From positions 5,622 to 69,621 of the forward strand of contig CAZOFV010000001.1 of NCBI GenBank assembly GCA_964579635.1: a stretch of DNA of 64,000 nt. Reading direction: 5' to 3'. Under the pieces are notes generated by a model. That model worked only from the letters and a program-made list of their open reading frames with translations, ran no database searches and was not told where the DNA came from. The DNA comes from an uncultured Candidatus Saccharibacteria bacterium (GTDB taxonomy: Bacteria > Patescibacteriota > Minisyncoccia > Phycocordibacterales > VMEP01). The position numbers were made by a program, and so were the translations under genes. Shown here one piece after another: positions 6,405 to 57,230 of this stretch (its first letter is position 1; each line of letters opens with the position of its first letter).

Positions 6405-8366
6405 TTATTGCTTAGAAACATTAGAAGCTCTATATGTACCAACTGCATACCTAGAAAGTATTCCTAATCCAAGAATTATAAGGATTAATAATAACCAACC
6501 AAGCAATGTGTTTGGCAAGAAACTAGAACCGAATATTGGAGCTAAAGCTCGTGAAGACTGGTAGTATTCACCATTTAACAAAACGTAGGCAATTGCTTCT
6601 TCTTGTGTGTTGTTTTCTCTCGTATAAACCATATCAACACTCACAACAACAACCTTACCGCTTTCAATAGTGTTATCTACAACAGTTTCAACGGTAAATG
6701 AGCCTGCCTCTCCGGCCTCTAAGGTCTTTAGATCAACTGTTAAAGTTCTGTCTTTGTCGTTGTAGTAACCTCTTGATGAATCAATGTATGAAAGTTCTCC
6801 AGGAAGAACAACTCTCACAGCAACATCGTGCAAGCTTTCACTTGTCTTGGTGTTGCGATAATTGATTGTAAAGATAACCCTATCTCCACGAGAGACGTTG
6901 TCTCTATTTGAAGAAATAGAAAGTATTATTGCTGATGTCTTTGTACTCCCAGAAGCACCACTTACAACGTAAGTTGTTTTGGAAGAAGTAACAGTTGGTG
7001 AAGTAACAATAACCGAAGTTGTGTTAGATGAACCACCAGTAGTAAAGCTCATTATGTCTCCTTTGTGTGTTCCGTATTGATTTTGAACTACTGCACGGTA
7101 GTAATAAGTCCTTCCATTAACAAGCCCAGTGAGATCTTCAGAAAAGGCTAGGGTCACGGCGCTTCCAATATTCTTACTTTGAGTTGTGTTTCCTAGAGAG
7201 CTTGTTGTTCCCCATTCAAACCAACCAGTTGTATTAACACCACCGTTAATAAAGACGAGACCATTTACCCTTGCCGTTGTTTGCCCTATCGAAGTAGCAA
7301 GAGTTGTAACAGCTGTTGGCTGACTGCCTCCAACGTAGTTATAGGAAGAAGAGTTGTATTGATTGTTATTATTTGTCACAAACGACATAACTGTTCCATA
7401 AACAGTACCGTTTGAGTTCTGAGCAACGGCTCTGTAGTAGTAAGTTGTATTTGGACTCAAACCATTAACTGTTTGTGTAAATGTTCCGGATGAAGTTTGG
7501 TTTAACTTAAGTGTTGTGTTGTTAAAGTAACTAGAATTTGTACCCCATTCAAACCAACGAGTTGTGTTTGTGCTTCCGTTTGGATCAACAAATCCTTGTA
7601 AAATAGCGAACGTGTCACCATTTTGAACTGTTGAATATGTCATGACAAAAGGTGTCTGACCGGTATTTTGATTACAGTTGTAGTTGTTATAACCACAGTT
7701 GTTGCTATTGTTGCTAGTTGTTGTGAAAGATTGAGTTCCGCCATAAACAACAGCACTACCTGAATTTTGTCCTACTGCTCGGTAGTAATAAGTCGTATTT
7801 TGATTTAAGGAATTATTAACTGAGTAGAAAGTTGTGTTAACTGTTCCGATATTTACCTGTGGAGTAGTATTTCCAAAGGAATTTGATGTCCCCCATTCAA
7901 ACCAAACATTTGTCATTACACCTCCATTTGAGTTAACAGAACCTTGAAAAGTTGCTGAATTACTAGAAACGCTTGTTGGAGCATTTGTTGTTATTATTGG
8001 AGACGCCTGATTTTGATTTTGCTGTGAACAAGAGAGAGTTGATGCACTTTGAATATTTGCATAGAAAATATTTTGAGGTGCAGAAGAATCCCAGAAAACC
8101 AACTGGTATTGATAGGTGGAGTTACATGGGATATCAACTGTCTCTGAAACAGGTTGTGTCCCGTTAACAGCTGTACTTCTTGTTGGTGTCACAGATGTTG
8201 CACCACCACTAATACTGTAGGAGAAATAATAACCTGCGTTAGTAGGAACGCTTGAGGTTATGTCACCACGAAATGTAACACTATCCGCTAGAACAGGTGT
8301 TGCAAAAACTCCCATTGCTAAAACGGCGACTGCGACAAAAAATGATTTTATTAATGATTTTTTCAT
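6405..8366 (-). CDS. Secreted cell-surface protein with four Fn3-like repeats, a DUF11-like domain and a C-terminal LPNTL/hydrophobic/charged-tail anchor
   Basis: Signal peptide present. Repeated W.EWGT...YYYRAV.QN..G modules. C-terminus is FLPNTLLG followed by a TM segment and an RYAVGTYRASN tail. Confidence 0.7.
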   Translation of the reverse strand: MKKSLIKSFFVAVAVLAMGVFATPVLADSVTFRGDITSSVPTNAGYYFSYSISGGATSVTPTRSTAVNGTQPVSETVDIPCNSTYQYQLVFWDSSAPQNIFYANIQSASTLSCSQQNQNQASPIITTNAPTSVSSNSATFQGSVNSNGGVMTNVWFEWGTSNSFGNTTPQVNIGTVNTTFYSVNNSLNQNTTYYYRAVGQNSGSAVVYGGTQSFTTTSNNSNNCGYNNYNCNQNTGQTPFVMTYSTVQNGDTFAILQGFVDPNGSTNTTRWFEWGTNSSYFNNTTLKLNQTSSGTFTQTVNGLSPNTTYYYRAVAQNSNGTVYGTVMSFVTNNNNQYNSSSYNYVGGSQPTAVTTLATSIGQTTARVNGLVFINGGVNTTGWFEWGTTSSLGNTTQSKNIGSAVTLAFSEDLTGLVNGRTYYYRAVVQNQYGTHKGDIMSFTTGGSSNTTSVIVTSPTVTSSKTTYVVSGASGSTKTSAIILSISSNRDNVSRGDRVIFTINYRNTKTSESLHDVAVRVVLPGELSYIDSSRGYYNDKDRTLTVDLKTLEAGEAGSFTVETVVDNTIESGKVVVVSVDMVYTRENNTQEEAIAYVLLNGEYYQSSRALAPIFGSSFLPNTLLGWLLLILIILGLGILSRYAVGTYRASNVSKQ

Positions 8367-8471
8367 ATAATTGTTTGGTTTTTTATAATATTAGTAATCT
8401 ATCATGAAACACAAGAAAAGTCAATGGGTAAGAAATTATCTAAAATTAAATTGTTTTTATAAAGATACGGC

Positions 8472-8508
8472 AAAAAAATAAAAGGGGGGCATAAAATGCC
8501 CCCCTCTT
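8472..8508 (-). terminator. Rho-independent terminator of the lipoprotein gene 8558..9580
   Basis: Minus-strand reading: GAGGGGGGCAT ttt ATGCCCCCCT followed by TTTTATTTTTTT. Confidence 0.6.
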
Positions 8509-8557
8509 TAAGCAAAGAACTGCCTATTTTTTGGGTAAAATCTTGCAATCACGAGGA

Positions 8558-9580
8558 CTACAAGGTTCTTCCACTAAAGGAGGTCTGTGGCAAAGTTCTG
8601 CCACTAAATGACGACTGTGGCAAAGTTCTGCCACTGATCGTCGGACCAGAAGATGACGGTGGTAAAGTTCTGCCGGTAAGCACCGGTGCGGTTGACGACG
8701 GGGGTAAGGTTCTGCCCGTAATCGTCGGACCAGCAATGTAGGCTTGTGCTGGTTGGACAACATATGGAGCGCCAATAACAGCGCCACTATTTCCAACCCA
8801 TCCGCTAAAGCCGACGTAGCCGCCACAACCGTCATAACAGCCACTGCTTGCAACCGCGACGGGCGTTTCGGTGATAACTTCCCGCATCACCACTCGGCTC
8901 TTGCGGTACCACTCGCTTTCAGGCGCTTTGACGATCTTCGTCTCCTTGGGAGGAGACTGTGGCACCGGCGGTTCTTCTGGAACTTCTGCCAATGTCTCTG
9001 CCGCCCTGATGACGAAGCCGGCGAAATTGCCACAATCACGCACGCGGAACAGCTTGTATTCGACGCCCTTGAAAGAAGTCGAGTACACGTCGGCGATATG
9101 TTCTTCGCCTTCTGCCCATGCCGCAACGGTGTTAACCCGTACCTTCGCTTTGTTGCCTTTCAGCAAACGGCCGAACGCCATCCAGTCAAACGTGTCGCCA
9201 CGCTTGAGGGTCATTTCTGCCCCCACCTTCTTTTCGAAATTCACGAGAAGGGCTTTCTTTACTTCAGTTGGCCATCCGCTTTGTGCAAGCGCCTGCTCGG
9301 CGTTCCCGATATACGGGTCGCCACCGACCTTGCGCCAGCAAAGATACCCTGCTGTGTTTTTGGGCGCACCAGTGCAATCCTTCAAGGAATACTTCCCTTC
9401 GCGGACAGCAATCCTGGTGCGGACAACAACAGCCGGAGCATCGTTTTTCGAAACCACGACAGTTGCTTCCTTCTCAGGAGCCTTCGTCGTCGCGACGTTC
9501 GTTTTGGTTTCCATTCCAGCACAAGCCGAAAGGAAGACCGCCATGAACAATGATGCCAACAAATTCAATTTGCGTGTCAT
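8558..9580 (-). CDS. Lipoprotein of unknown function (GC-rich islet gene 1) with C-terminal S(F/I)SGRTLPQ(S/T) peptide repeats
   Basis: Signal peptide plus lipobox FLSAC. Perfect SD AAAGGAGGTG 5 nt upstream of the ATG. GC content far above the flanking DNA. Confidence 0.7.
   Translation of the reverse strand: MTRKLNLLASLFMAVFLSACAGMETKTNVATTKAPEKEATVVVSKNDAPAVVVRTRIAVREGKYSLKDCTGAPKNTAGYLCWRKVGGDPYIGNAEQALAQSGWPTEVKKALLVNFEKKVGAEMTLKRGDTFDWMAFGRLLKGNKAKVRVNTVAAWAEGEEHIADVYSTSFKGVEYKLFRVRDCGNFAGFVIRAAETLAEVPEEPPVPQSPPKETKIVKAPESEWYRKSRVVMREVITETPVAVASSGCYDGCGGYVGFSGWVGNSGAVIGAPYVVQPAQAYIAGPTITGRTLPPSSTAPVLTGRTLPPSSSGPTISGRTLPQSSFSGRTLPQTSFSGRTL
8566..8742. repeat. Five tandem 30-42-nt units (GGCAAAGTTCTGCCACT...) inside the 3' end of the lipoprotein CDS
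   Basis: Direct repeats visible in the DNA. They encode the repeated decapeptide SGRTLPQSSF. Confidence 0.6.
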
Positions 9581-9668
9581 GATGACACCTCCTTTTTAAT
9601 TTTCAATTGGCGAAATTGCCAAACTGATTTCTAGATTAAGAATATCATATTTTTATTATTCTGTCAAT

Positions 9669-9704
9669 ATAAAATAAAAAGGGGTACGATTTCTCGTACC
9701 CCTT
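9669..9704 (-). terminator. Rho-independent terminator of the lipoprotein gene 9723..10202
   Basis: Minus-strand reading: AGGGGTACGA gaaa TCGTACCCCT followed by TTTTTATTTT. Confidence 0.6.
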
Positions 9705-9722
9705 GTTTGCTCACTTGAGCAC

Positions 9723-10202
9723 CTAGCAAAGGCTAGGAAACATTGACCAGGTAGACTGGCACGGCCGTGGCGCAGACTGCTGTCCGCGGTAAGGCTGGAT
9801 TTGCCCTTGGTAACCCTGATAGCCAGTGGCACCTGCGCTTTGGCTTCCGGCAACACCGCTATATGGCGCCGCTGCTTGGGCGCAAGCTTCTGGTCGACCG
9901 CCATTTTCAAGACAAGCAGCGATTATTTCCGTTGCGGCCAAACGTCTGGCTGCATCAGCCCGGCCGACCGCAGACCCGATTTCACTCGGAATCCGTGGCT
10001 TGGTTACCATCGCTTGCCTGCTTCCGTCAGAGCGAATCACAGACGTTGCTGGACGACACTCTTCGGTGCCGTCAGCACGAATCCGACATTCCTCCTCAAG
10101 GAGAATCGGTTCATGCGACACTGTGCGAGCTACTTGCTGGCCCCCACACCCCGCGACGAGAATGGATATCATCGCCACGAAAAACAGACTGGTTCTGGAC
10201 AT
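9723..10202 (-). CDS. Small Cys-containing lipoprotein of unknown function (GC-rich islet gene 2)
   Basis: Signal peptide plus lipobox LVAGC. Perfect SD AGAGGAGGA upstream. GC-rich. Confidence 0.6.
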   Translation of the reverse strand: MSRTSLFFVAMISILVAGCGGQQVARTVSHEPILLEEECRIRADGTEECRPATSVIRSDGSRQAMVTKPRIPSEIGSAVGRADAARRLAATEIIAACLENGGRPEACAQAAAPYSGVAGSQSAGATGYQGYQGQIQPYRGQQSAPRPCQSTWSMFPSLC

Positions 10203-39424: not shown

Positions 39425-39967
39425 AAATGGAACTATAGCATTTAGCTTCGCGTTAAAGAAAAAATAAAAGGTATCATACCGCCGGGCAAGCCCTGCACCC
39501 AAAGCGTGTTCGCTTCGCTCACGCTTTGGCGCGACAAGCCGCGCGGTATTTTAATCCCTTATATTGCTCTCCTCGGCTCGGAAATGAGGAAGATTACTTT
39601 CTCATTTCACTCTCTCTACGTCGGCAATAAACATTTTTTTGTTTTTAAGGACAAAATTTTTCTTATCCCCACCCTGGTTGACTTCCTTACCATAGGGGGA
39701 TACCATTTCATATGAGGGCGGGAATACCCCACCCAAATTAGAAAAATGGCTCTGCTAGGCCATTTTTAGCCCTTTTAGGGACTTAAGATAGCAAAATTGC
39801 TTATTTTTCAACGGTTTTGCCCACTCGGGTCGTACAGGAAAAATAGTAATTTTTAAAATAGGCTTATCGAATATAAAGAAAAAGACCCTGGTTGTGCGAA
39901 TCAGGCGAAAAACCCCTTATTTCTAGGGCTTCTATCAAAGAGGCTTGTAACTTTATTTATAGGTGTT

Positions 39968-47299: not shown

Positions 47300-47429
47300 G
47301 GCGCAAACTATAACAAAAAACCCCTATTTTTGCAAGGCCTGTGCTAGTTCGCACACATTACCCACGGCTCTTGACATATATATTTCCACATGTCAATATT
47401 TAACTAGTTTTAATTCTTTGGAGAACGAT

Positions 47430-47636
47430 ATGGGACTGAAGTTCAGCGAATTGCCCGCAGAAGCGTACTTCATCTGCGCCGACGACCTTGGCAATCGAGA
47501 AGGCGTGTATGTTTACCGGAAACGGAATCCGAGAGCAGGGATGTTTACGGAAGAATGCATTGATCATTTCAGTGGAAATACGGTCGCTAGACGCGTATTT
47601 CGTCCGGACACCGCAGTGTTCCGTGTTGCCCGGTAA
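47430..47636 (+). CDS. Hypothetical 68-aa protein encoded by the mini-cassette
   Basis: -35 TTGACA with a 17-nt spacer, then -10 CAATAT. SD GGAGAA 5 nt before the ATG. A strong terminator follows immediately. Confidence 0.5.
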   Translation: MGLKFSELPAEAYFICADDLGNREGVYVYRKRNPRAGMFTEECIDHFSGNTVARRVFRPDTAVFRVAR

Positions 47637-47637
47637 T

Positions 47638-47680
47638 GCCCGCCCAGAAGTCGTCGCTTCTCGGGCGGTTTCTGTTTTTA
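47638..47680 (+). terminator. Rho-independent terminator of the cassette ORF
   Basis: CCGCCCAGAAG..CTTCTCGGGCGG followed by TTTCTGTTTTTAT. Confidence 0.6.
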
Positions 47681-47844
47681 TACACAGGTGGTTAAAGCGA
47701 AGCAAAAATACTTATAGACGTACGACCTGAATCCGTTAGGGGTGCGTTTTCACCAAAAAACTTATAATAGCAACGGCATAATTTTGAATTAAAAAAGCCT
47801 TATTTTTGCAAGGCCTGTGCTAAAAACCATTTTTCTGGTTTATT

Positions 47845-48039
47845 TTAATGAAGTTCGTTGAAAGAAGTGTCTTTTTTAAGCTTTTTTAGAGCTTCGTTGA
47901 GTTCCTTCTCTTCTTCGGCTGTTAATTGTTGTGTCTCTGGGTATTGTTCTGCTTTTTTTTCAAAAAGATCTTTGCGCCCCAAAAGAGAAGCATCTCCGTG
48001 CGGCTCGTTTTCGTTTATTGGTAGTGATTCTAGTCCCAT
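47845..48039 (-). CDS. Hypothetical 64-aa protein
   Basis: ORF with TATAAT upstream and no SD. Weak. Confidence 0.3.
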   Translation of the reverse strand: MGLESLPINENEPHGDASLLGRKDLFEKKAEQYPETQQLTAEEEKELNEALKKLKKDTSFNELH

Positions 48040-48150
48040 ATTTGTATATTCGTGTAATTATATCATAAAAAAAATAAAGGTATCAGATTTTTCTTTCAAA
48101 AATAGATAACGTGCTTGGGTGACTGTCGTGGTAAAATATTTTACGACATC

Positions 48151-51883: not shown

Positions 51884-52035
51884 AGTGTGCTTTCGCAGCA
51901 AGCCAACTGCTTGGCTTGCGTCAGGATTCGAAAGCCGGAGCATGTCGCTCTGCGACAGCGAGGCGGGGTCGCAGGTTCTTTGTGTATGAGAATGTTTTCA
52001 TTCGAAGACACTTAGAAACCTGTGACCGATTCTAT
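51884..52035. repeat. tRNA-associated hairpin repeat, copy A
   Basis: Hairpins GCAAGCCAA ctg CTTGGCTTGC and GTCGC tct GCGAC, the core GAGGCGGGGTCGCAGGTTC, and a terminal GTGACCGATTC motif. Confidence 0.5.
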
Positions 52036-52189: not shown

Positions 52190-52390
52190 AGTGAGCAAGC
52201 GTGTAGAGCAAGCCAACTGCTTGGCTTGCGTCAGGATTCGAAAGCCGGAGCATGTCGCTCTGCGACAGCGAGGCGGGGTCGCGACCTTCGTTGCGGAGAT
52301 TTATCGTAGCAGAAGAGTTGTGACCGATTATCTTTGATTTCGGAGTTATTAACGAGTAATCCGTGACCGATTCTCTCTTTCAGGATCTTC
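52190..52390. repeat. tRNA-associated hairpin repeat, copy B, with two trailing GTGACCGATT motifs
   Basis: Near-identical to copy A over about 75 nt. Confidence 0.5.
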
Positions 52391-53124: not shown

Positions 53125-53160
53125 CGGGGTGTAGTATAGAGGTAGTACGTCTGCTTTGGG
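53125..53160 (+). pseudogene. 5' fragment of tRNA-Pro (36 nt, up to the anticodon), a duplicate of the intact gene 75 nt downstream
   Basis: Identical to nt 1-36 of the intact tRNA-Pro, then diverges. Confidence 0.5.
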
Positions 53161-53199
53161 GTTAAGAAGATTTTTCGTTTAGTATTTTGGTTTCATCGT

Positions 53200-53270
53200 C
53201 GGGGTGTAGTATAGAGGTAGTACGTCTGCTTTGGGAGCAGATAGCCCGAGTTCGATTCTCGGCACCCCGA
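53200..53270 (+). tRNA. tRNA-Pro (anticodon UGG), no encoded CCA
   Basis: Acceptor CGGGGTG/CACCCCG, anticodon stem-loop TCTGC TTTGGGA GCAGA, T-arm CCCGAG TTCGATT CTCGG. Confidence 0.85.
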
Positions 53271-53349
53271 CGATGAAACTAAACGATTTTTAGAAATCTT
53301 ATTAACCGGAAGTCCGGGGGACTTCCGTGGAAATTTCCCGAAGAAATTT

Positions 53350-53381
53350 AGATAGCCCGAGTTCGATTCTCGGCACCCCGA
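53350..53381 (+). repeat. 3' fragment of tRNA-Pro (32 nt identical) plus a duplicated downstream flank CAATGTAACTAA
   Basis: Exact copy of the last 32 nt of tRNA-Pro. The flank is similar to that after the intact gene. Confidence 0.5.
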
Positions 53382-53439
53382 CAATGTAACTAAATGGTGT
53401 GTTAGAAACTCTTTGTAATCAGAAGTTCATTATAAACGT

Positions 53440-53592
53440 AACGAAGCACTGTAAGGGGTGAGCAGGCAAAGGGCTTTGCCTGCGTCCGGAATCGAAAGCC
53501 GGAGCGCGACGGCGCGAGGCGGGGCTGCGCAAAAATTTAGTAAAATTTTATGCGTAGCCGATTCTCGGCACCCCGACAATGTAACTAAGTAA
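53440..53592. repeat. tRNA-associated hairpin repeat, copy C, ending in a second tRNA-Pro 3'-end fragment (53558-53576) plus flank
   Basis: Hairpin GCAGGCAAAG..CTTTGCCTGC carries compensatory changes relative to copies A and B. Also has GAATCGAAAGCCGGAGC and a GCAAAAATTTAGTAAAATTTTATGCG palindrome. Confidence 0.45.
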
Positions 53593-56914: not shown

Positions 56915-57230
56915 GAAAAGTTGGGCGGGATGAGCAAGCAAACTGCTTTGCTTGCGTGGAGAATCGAAAGCCGGAGCATGTCGCTTTGCGACAGCGAGGC
57001 GGGGTCCGCGAGTACTTATGAGCGAAGCGAATTAGTAACTCGTGACCGATTCCCATCCCGCACAAAGCGTTAAGAAAACATGCTAGGAACAGCATGTTTT
57101 CAGCTTTGTGGGGCGGAGGCTGACGAGCCGAGCCGGGGTCGCGCAAAAATTTAGCAAAATTTTATGCGTGACCAGATTTGAACTATAGCGAAACGAATTA
57201 GTAACTTGTGACCGATTCTCTAATCTTTTT
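56915..57230. repeat. tRNA-associated hairpin repeats, copies D and E (tandem, partially duplicated), each ending in ..AATTAGTAACT(C/T)GTGACCGATTC
   Basis: Copy D hairpin GCAAGCAAA ctg CTTTGCTTGC has compensatory changes against copies A and B. Copy E shares GAGCCGGGGTCGCGCAAAAATTTAGCAAAATTTTATGCG with copies C and F. Confidence 0.5.

Follow-up and report, generated by a model that had tools for sequence, protein, structure and literature searches.

Cis-mobilizable elements (CIMEs), known from the integrative and conjugative element families of Streptococcus thermophilus, are attL/attR-flanked islets that lack integrase and transfer genes. Direct repeats of ~30 bp around foreign DNA are the classical attL/attR signature. 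Here, we describe such an arrangement in a 64,000-nucleotide stretch of contig CAZOFV010000001.1 (the window): a cassette of 476 bp, carrying the gene for a 68-aa protein, that lies between rpsO and a xer gene and is bracketed by two copies of a short direct repeat. The locus resembles a CIME in three respects: foreign DNA is held between two direct att-like copies; no recombinase is encoded inside; and the empty site of relatives has one copy. It differs from a CIME in its far smaller size of 476 bp, in having no known cognate autonomous element, in its target, which is a terminator/promoter hairpin and not the 3' end of a gene, and in its host, a member of the Candidate Phyla Radiation (CPR)/Parcubacteria.

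Integrative mobile elements exploiting Xer (IMEX) are found at dif and include CTX-phi, VGJ-phi, TLC-phi, the gonococcal genetic island (GGI) and Legionella LME-1 (PMC5357621, PMC9765430). The present locus shares with them a non-autonomous insert, two site copies of ~30 bp, a nearby Xer-family gene and an AT-rich, intergenic, partly palindromic site. It departs from them in that its site fails the conservation expected of dif and no terminus signature is seen in the window, and the known IMEX are phages or islands of at least several kb. The pdif modules of Acinetobacter are small plasmid gene modules bounded by XerC/D sites (PMC11705084). They are comparable in size (0.5 to a few kb), in their single self-expressed cargo gene and in their short recombinase-type boundary sites. 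However, pdif modules have inverted site pairs with canonical XerC/XerD arms, are plasmid-borne and occur in many copies and contexts, whereas the copies here are direct and chromosomal, the insertion is single, and the arms appear non-canonical.

The size of ~0.5 kb, the single open reading frame (ORF), the hairpin-forming boundary site and the divergent tyrosine recombinase gene nearby also recall an integron gene cassette. In such cassettes, attC extends over 57-141 bp as an imperfect palindrome containing R''/L''/L'/R' boxes. In contrast, this locus has no attC, attI or array, its stem is 7-8 bp within a 32-nt repeat, and the unit has its own promoter and terminator. The integron-integrase model TIGR02249 scores the product of the neighbouring xer gene at 133.3 bits in two stretches, against a cut-off of 265. 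With no attC or array, and with a recombinase that falls below the IntI cut-off and passes the XerA model, an integron gene cassette was rejected.

Horizontal transfer at nucleotide resolution is poorly documented in CPR/Patescibacteria, and the locus provides a clean before/after pair: six empty lineages; one occupied strain; and a donor-like, Kaiserbacteria-like copy. A single self-expressed orphan gene moves here between Parcubacteria lineages of strongly different GC content, and its landing regenerates the promoter of an essential gene and the terminator of the neighbouring one. The locus is a tidy but ordinary att-flanked non-autonomous islet with orphan cargo, and events of this kind are seldom resolved in its lineage.

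A strain-specific insertion

The occupied form was found only in contigs L008-L011, from four Sequence Read Archive (SRA) runs, which match the window at 100% identity across 2.7-6.6 kb. Four independent assemblies spanning the cassette rule out an assembly artefact and, as all are identical, the cassette is known from a single strain. An empty site, which the earlier sequence-only reading of this DNA had proposed to look for, was found in every relative recovered. L001-L005, short contigs of other samples located through an exact match to the S15 protein, have the conserved 64-aa ORF, ~70 bp of intergenic sequence and then rpsO, with one repeat copy and no cassette. A repeat scan of GTDB species genomes returned one locus, in Parcubacteria group bacterium LiPW_30 (L007, ~90% identical), and a metagenome scan with the rpsO 5' end added L020 (~94%) and L024 (~81%), each of them empty. 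A further 14 contigs, L034-L047, came from homologues of the 64-aa ORF (77-84% identical); the 11 that reach rpsO are empty (11/11), and L034-L036 end at rpsO or short of it. The empty-site relatives comprise at least six lineages, about 78-95% identical to the window, and about 35 related contigs hold no other occupant of the site.

These observations place a strain-specific insertion in groundwater Parcubacteria. The reverse history, in which an ancestral cassette was lost from all relatives by recombination between the repeats, draws on the established capacity of direct repeats for precise deletion. It requires, however, independent loss in at least six lineages across this range of identity, and is at odds with the foreign base composition of the segment and with the location of its sole homologue, which lies at a different locus in a different genus-level lineage. 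Taken together, presence in one strain, absence from at least six lineages and foreign composition make insertion far more parsimonious than repeated loss, and the ancestral history is very improbable.

Two further candidates were set aside. In L041, what looked like an additional insertion is a stretch of N in the scaffold. A recombination breakpoint at the insertion, suggested by identities of ~98% on the rpsO side and ~85% on the other side, was discarded since the same pattern occurs in all relatives; it arises because rpsO is very conserved and the 64-aa ORF evolves fast.

Anatomy of the insert

The sequence-only reading had proposed a self-contained cassette between direct repeats, with rpsO on one side and xer on the other, and the discrete insertion is confirmed (Table 1). 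The repeat, given there as ~23 bp, is real, but its length is 32 nt: 30 of 32 positions are identical between copies spaced 476 bp apart, and the 23-mer is exact in the left copy only, the right one beginning TTATTT. The exact core common to both is the 22-mer TATTTTTGCAAGGCCTGTGCTA (47325-47346 and 47801-47822). A claimed extension of the similarity to about 40 bp did not survive, as the sequences beyond the 32 nt read as unrelated. The core occurs only twice in the window with up to three mismatches tolerated (expected 0.01; two copies reached in 0 of 100 shuffles). The window, GTDB genome and IMG/VR scans for extra copies indicate a unique sequence rather than a generic repeat. The mismatches between the copies, at 47321 and 47324 in left-copy coordinates, both sit in a single hairpin arm, outside the loop.

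The insert between the copies is 444 bp long and has 45.7% GC, against 37.3% for the window. Along its interior and ORF the GC content is 48-52%, compared with 33-41% in the flanks. The 68-aa ORF is the sole supported gene, overlapping mechanical ORFs reaching at most 122 aa, and neither ORF translations nor Pfam reveal a recombinase in the insert. Neither insert nor site has an Rfam match at E <= 1, and the 112-nt tail folds no better than shuffled sequences.

Table 1. Coordinates of the insert, its boundary repeats and the neighbouring genes in the window (strand "." where none is assigned).
Feature	Position	Strand	Basis
rpsO, ribosomal protein S15, 87 aa	47036..47299	-	Pfam PF00312, E = 1.3e-29; identical protein beside empty sites L001-L005
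rpsO promoter, TTGCAA-17-TATAGT	47307..47335	-	promoter scan; invariant in five lineages
Left 32-nt repeat copy (attL-like)	47315..47346	.	repeat comparison; 2 differences from right copy
20-nt linker in insert, without detectable homologue	47347..47366	.	blastn/alignment against L006
Transferred expression unit: promoter, Shine-Dalgarno (SD) sequence, ORF, terminator	47367..47678	+	blastn and alignment; only part common to L006
Sigma-70-like cassette promoter, TTGACA-18-AATATT (or -17-CAATAT)	47371..47400	+	promoter scan; conserved in L006
68-aa ORF, orphan protein; GGAGAA SD at 47420-47425	47430..47636	+	ORF list, dN/dS
Cassette intrinsic terminator	47640..47679	+	fold -19.5 kcal/mol, z = -3.65; conserved in L006
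AT-rich insert tail, 112 nt, without homologue or significant structure	47679..47790	.	Rfam, folding, alignment
Right 32-nt repeat copy (attR-like), same sequence as single site of L020/L038	47791..47822	.	repeat comparison, alignment
Conserved 64-aa ORF, adjoining the target site on its upstream side in all relatives	47845..48039	-	homologue contigs
XerA-type tyrosine recombinase, 307 aa	48151..49074	+	NCBIfam NF040815, 240.7 bits against cut-off 220; Pfam PF00589

The cargo gene and its foreign origin

The 68-aa protein has one homologue (87% identity) among 5.8 billion proteins, encoded on L006, a 940-bp contig of 50% GC. DNA similarity between L006 and the window covers the expression unit of Table 1 at 89.8% identity: it begins 4 nt before the cassette -35 and stops inside the terminator T-run. 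The elements predicted from sequence for this unit, namely its own promoter, a GGAGAA SD, a 68-aa ORF and a strong terminator, were all four borne out by scans and folding. The two ORF copies differ by 10 synonymous and 9 non-synonymous changes, and the resulting dN/dS of 0.24 indicates that the gene is real and under purifying selection. The distribution of these differences over codon positions 1/2/3 (1/7/11) favours the sense ORF and disfavours the antisense ORF.

Sequence searches of the 68-aa protein against Pfam (E <= 1), PHROGs, NCBIfam, PADLOC and the PDB gave no match, and an AlphaFold model built from the two-sequence alignment is unusable, with a predicted local distance difference test (pLDDT) score of 53. 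An exhaustive HMMER search returned four non-self hits, all of them repeat proteins: two with cyanovirin-N homology (CVNH) repeats; one with fn3; and one of low complexity. The hits to the CVNH-repeat proteins (P0003 and P0005) are sums of weak matches, and the motif common to them and the 68-aa protein is C.xD[IL]xNxxG...[KR][KR]N.xxGx[FY]xExC. Aligning the 68-aa protein with CVNH repeat units in hhalign gave 88.9% probability over 36 columns, the template having been chosen after the hits were seen; the Pfam CVNH model PF08881 does not match the protein at its gathering score. That the cargo may be a CVNH-like lectin is a weak lead.

The gene caller of the public collection missed the 68-aa ORF in all four identical contigs, the Logan assemblies L008-L011, and in the same contigs began rpsO at an internal ATG (77 aa). 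Such missed calls make small genes of foreign composition invisible to protein searches of the collection that holds these contigs.

On L006, the unit lies back-to-back with, and directly upstream of, holB (DNA polymerase III delta'), and the nearest relatives of this holB are annotated Candidatus Kaiserbacteria or Paceibacterota. The mreB-holB junction is variable in Kaiserbacteria-like contigs: the two genes overlap by 4 nt in L048-L050; they are parted in L052 by an oppositely oriented 132-aa ORF; and L006 ends before any mreB. By eye, the N-terminus of the L052 132-aa ORF resembles a signal peptide, and holB of both L006 and L052 has TATAAT 6 nt before its ATG and looks leaderless. Further copies of the cassette were found neither in JGI metagenomes or IMG/VR with back-translated patterns nor in phage and plasmid collections with blastn. 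The insert is foreign, and its source appears to be a Kaiserbacteria-like Parcubacteria lineage of ~50% GC. Donor-like and recipient-like lineages co-occur in groundwater data (Hainich L004/L048; the SRR2238xxxx runs behind L006/L037).

The target site

The conservation of the site was assessed in an intergenic alignment of five lineages. An invariant block, CCTTGCAAAAATAAGG.TTTTTTG.TATAGTTTG on the minus strand, ends a few bases before the rpsO ATG and is the -35/-10 promoter of rpsO. The -35, TTGCAA, lies within the left repeat copy; this placement had already been noted, and both the promoter scan and the conservation of the block among relatives bear it out. The -10 ends 7 nt before the ATG, and the rpsO mRNA is probably leaderless if the 87-aa start is the one used. 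The other end of the duplicated segment, including GTGCTAAAAAC, which had been proposed as the right arm of the site, differs from lineage to lineage: TAGCACAGG is variable among the relatives, which have TAGTGCAGG, TACCGAAGC and TACCGAGAGC.

A second signal overlaps the first. On the minus strand, the hairpin AGGCCTT-GCAAAAAT-AAGGCTT is followed by a T-run, and its 3' part is made of promoter-block bases. This hairpin with its T-run is the intrinsic terminator of the 64-aa ORF. The duplicated 32 nt consist of TAGCAC, the hairpin and T6, and are thus exactly the terminator unit; in the right copy, the minus strand forms an 8-bp hairpin followed by the T-run. The third pair of the hairpin is G-C in two lineages, C-G in one and mismatched in two, which indicates that the hairpin is only loosely maintained. 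Further to the left of rpsO lie an NYN-domain gene and pnp.

Mechanism of insertion

Any mechanism has to account for a set of established features: the insertion polymorphism; its exact boundaries; the foreign origin of the insert; a real gene; and a terminator/promoter target. The event is a recent horizontal insertion, specific to one strain, and its topology is that of Campbell-type integration; att-type (Campbell) site-specific recombination in trans is the favoured explanation and may well account for it. If so, the reaction likely involves: a unit of 476 bp in which one 32-bp site copy is joined to 444 bp of foreign DNA, presumably circular as an intermediate; its recombination with the resident 32-bp hairpin between the 64-aa ORF and rpsO; and, as the outcome, one site copy at each end of the insert. 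The exchange would be conservative and site-specific, probably catalysed by a tyrosine recombinase supplied in trans. One possible source of this enzyme would be the integrase of a larger, since-deleted element, the cassette then being a CIME-like remnant; another would be the host, for example the resident XerA-type protein.

Within the site, the hairpin arms AGGCCTT/AAGGCTT could serve as inverted binding sites, with the 8-nt loop GCAAAAAT as the likely position of crossover. Such a 7-8-7 architecture resembles the core sites of tyrosine recombinases (lambda Int, Xer, Cre). Consistent with this proposal, confinement of the mismatches to one arm is expected if attP and attB differed in that arm. 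After the insertion, the right copy continues to terminate the 64-aa ORF, and the left copy together with the unduplicated TATAGT continues to drive rpsO. As the signals of both neighbours are retained, the insertion would be neutral for both.

Several observations weigh against att-type integration. No autonomous element, circular junction or second occupant with the att sequence was found in IMG/VR, JGI metagenomes, GTDB genomes, phages or plasmids. Scans for the att 22-mer gave 0 hits in IMG/VR and a single one among GTDB genomes, the empty LiPW_30 site, in collections where CPR mobile elements are poorly sampled. The TAGCAC element, which is lineage-specific and apparently unconstrained (TAGTGC or TACCGA in relatives), is found in both copies; a simple duplication of resident sequence explains this sharing more easily than a pre-existing attP. 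Finally, the exact coincidence of the duplication with the hairpin and T-run could reflect a structure-dependent break.

These last points lead to a different account, a one-off illegitimate capture in which DNA of a co-occurring Kaiserbacteria-like cell would have entered at a hairpin break or replication stall with a true 32-bp target duplication. Staggered processing or template switching would have re-copied the hairpin and T-run, and the two mismatches would have arisen later. Besides the lineage-specific variable bases common to both copies and the exact match of the duplication to hairpin and T-tract, this capture is consistent with the occurrence of the cassette in one strain only, with no mobile family carrying its site or cargo in the collections searched, and with the groundwater data sets that donor-like and recipient-like lineages share. 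However, local alignment of the L006 flanks with the cassette/repeat junctions against shuffles was not significant (p = 0.09-0.74), and there is accordingly no significant microhomology to support the joining. For a lineage-specific branch no longer than a few percent, two substitutions clustered within a single 32-bp copy are a rather high number, and we know of no bacterial mechanism that yields a 32-bp duplication around a 444-bp insert. One-off capture is the main rival, possible but less likely than att-type integration. Matches that by eye had suggested junction microhomology with L006 (TGTGCT at the same offset; TTTTGCAA..CACTA) were dropped on the basis of the same comparison with shuffles.

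Other classes of element were rejected. No terminal inverted repeats pair the ends of the insert, and no target-site duplication (TSD) of transposase size is present; those of insertion sequences (IS) and transposons are at most 14 bp. An IS, a miniature inverted-repeat transposable element (MITE) or a mobile insertion cassette was set aside on the lack of terminal inverted repeats, the 32-bp duplication and the single copy, the gene unit of L006 excepted. Group II intron, IS200/IS605-type and Cas1-type origins were rejected on anatomy. CRISPR insertion duplicates a repeat of ~28-37 bp together with a spacer of ~30-40 bp, beside the leader of an array. A Cas1-Cas2 duplication would fit the 32-bp length, but the insert is 444 bp, there are two copies and no array is seen; Cas genes were not searched for.

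The neighbouring xer gene and the question of dif

The best PDB match of the xer product is XerA (5hxy), and the usual catalytic motifs (GLRVSEL, GKGEK, HVIRHS, GHASI..IYTHV) are apparent when read by eye from the translation. No Xer paralogue is present in the window. The distance from the right repeat copy to the xer ATG (48151) is 329 bp, in agreement with the ~330 bp noted earlier. However, xer adjoins the site in every relative, empty or occupied, and its proximity is therefore a property of the backbone rather than of the element. The xer genes of the relatives share ~89-91% DNA identity with that of the window.

Described dif sites are ~30 bp, intergenic and low in GC, have dyad arms, are conserved independently of their neighbourhood and coincide with an inflection of GC skew (PMC9765430; PMC5357621). 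XerS and XerH systems have their dif near xer (PMC5357621). The sequence-only reading proposed on this pattern that the 32-bp site is the dif of a single-recombinase XerA-type system and the cassette a minimal IMEX moved by the host Xer. In its favour, the XerA-type gene 329 bp away is the sole tyrosine recombinase in the window, the cassette lies without a recombinase of its own between two site copies, and the site resembles dif in size, intergenic position, low GC and partial dyad, as well as in its closeness to xer.

The conservation of the site argues otherwise. A dif core spans ~28-31 bp and has two recombinase-binding arms that mirror each other across 6-11 central bp. The site allows two weak dyads, TTTTTGCA-AGGCCT-(G)TGCTAAAAA, offset by 1 nt, and AAGCCTT-ATTTTTGC-AAGGCCT, and on reading, neither looks like the XerS/XerH arms given in PMC5357621. 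The dyad claimed around AGGCCT can thus be traced, but the second form is equally a terminator hairpin, and this hairpin with its flanking A/T tracts accounts for the symmetry equally well. Across the five lineages only the promoter part of the site is invariant while the second arm varies, even though xer is ~89-91% identical, and the gene neighbourhood is always the same; conservation independent of neighbourhood is therefore not what is seen. On either side of the site most genes occupy the minus strand, and there is no switch of gene strand or GC skew at 47-48 kb, although a 64-kb window could miss a terminus tens of kb away. Together with the absence of another occupant from about 35 related contigs, the variable arm, the missing switch and the fixed backbone position of xer leave the proposal of a dif-like target unsustained, and a dif/IMEX origin is unlikely. 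The locus is a genuine captured cassette that is not demonstrably at a dif site.

Capture mediated by Xer is a speculative possibility. The more specific proposal, that the XerA-type enzyme actively inserts and excises a 476-bp non-autonomous cassette at a hairpin site beside its own gene, is still less likely than a dif/IMEX origin. If the resident XerA-type enzyme did act, the 32-bp site would offer the radiation its first Xer substrate amenable to experiment. If Xer moved the cassette, the latter would represent the chromosomal, direct-repeat equivalent of a pdif module or the smallest known IMEX, and would make Xer targets and the movement of gene cassettes in CPR bacteria accessible for the first time.

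An imperfect palindrome, GTCGTGGTAAAATATTTTACGAC, is located at 48128-48147, just upstream of the xer ATG, and shares bases with a TAAAAT -10-like box. LiPW_30 retains most of the palindrome, with 2 differences. It could act as an autoregulatory operator or be no more than the promoter, and could also be considered as an alternative Xer site.

Other repeats and tRNA features of the window

A second indel is present in the same intergenic neighbourhood. A GC-rich, hairpin-rich element of ~180 bp at 39462-39640 has a 93%-identical copy in LiPW_30 (L007 3295-3474), where it sits between the 64-aa ORF and xer. It is a MITE-like mobile repeat.

GC-rich, hairpin-rich repeats of 76 nt occur at 51897-51972, 52207-52282, 53461-53536 and 56933-57008. 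Two copies are 100% identical, and the two others have identities of 88% and 63%. Two of them lie ~20-30 nt downstream of tRNA-Arg and tRNA-Gly-GCC, the rest falling within the tRNA-containing region at 51.8-57.2 kb, and shorter relatives occur at 52001, 52342, 57021 and 57187. In appearance, these repeats are small mobile elements or structured RNAs.

The tRNA-Pro gene at 53200-53271 stands amid partial copies of itself (53125-53589): its 5' 36 nt recur exactly at 53125-53160; its 3' 33 nt with flank are repeated at 53350-53394 (96%) and 53545-53589 (71%); and an inverted copy of its downstream flank lies between the 5' copies. This pattern looks like the scars of repeated att-type integrations or of rearrangements with very small inserts. 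No integrase is encoded near these duplications, where the ORFs specify a protease, a YraN-like nuclease, RNase Y and others.

The tRNA at 1642-1717 is labelled 'tRNA-Stop, anticodon tta' by ARAGORN. Shifting the stem by one base makes its 7-nt loop, CTTTTAA, that of a standard tRNA-Lys(UUU), and long ORFs in the window use the standard stops; this is probably a normal tRNA-Lys rather than an ochre suppressor. Finally, local GC rises to 48% at 8001-10000, where a 340-aa ORF on the minus strand (8558-9580) has no Pfam match. This ORF contains imperfect tandem repeats of ~41 nt (8579-8733), and several overlapping ORFs are present on the opposite strand.

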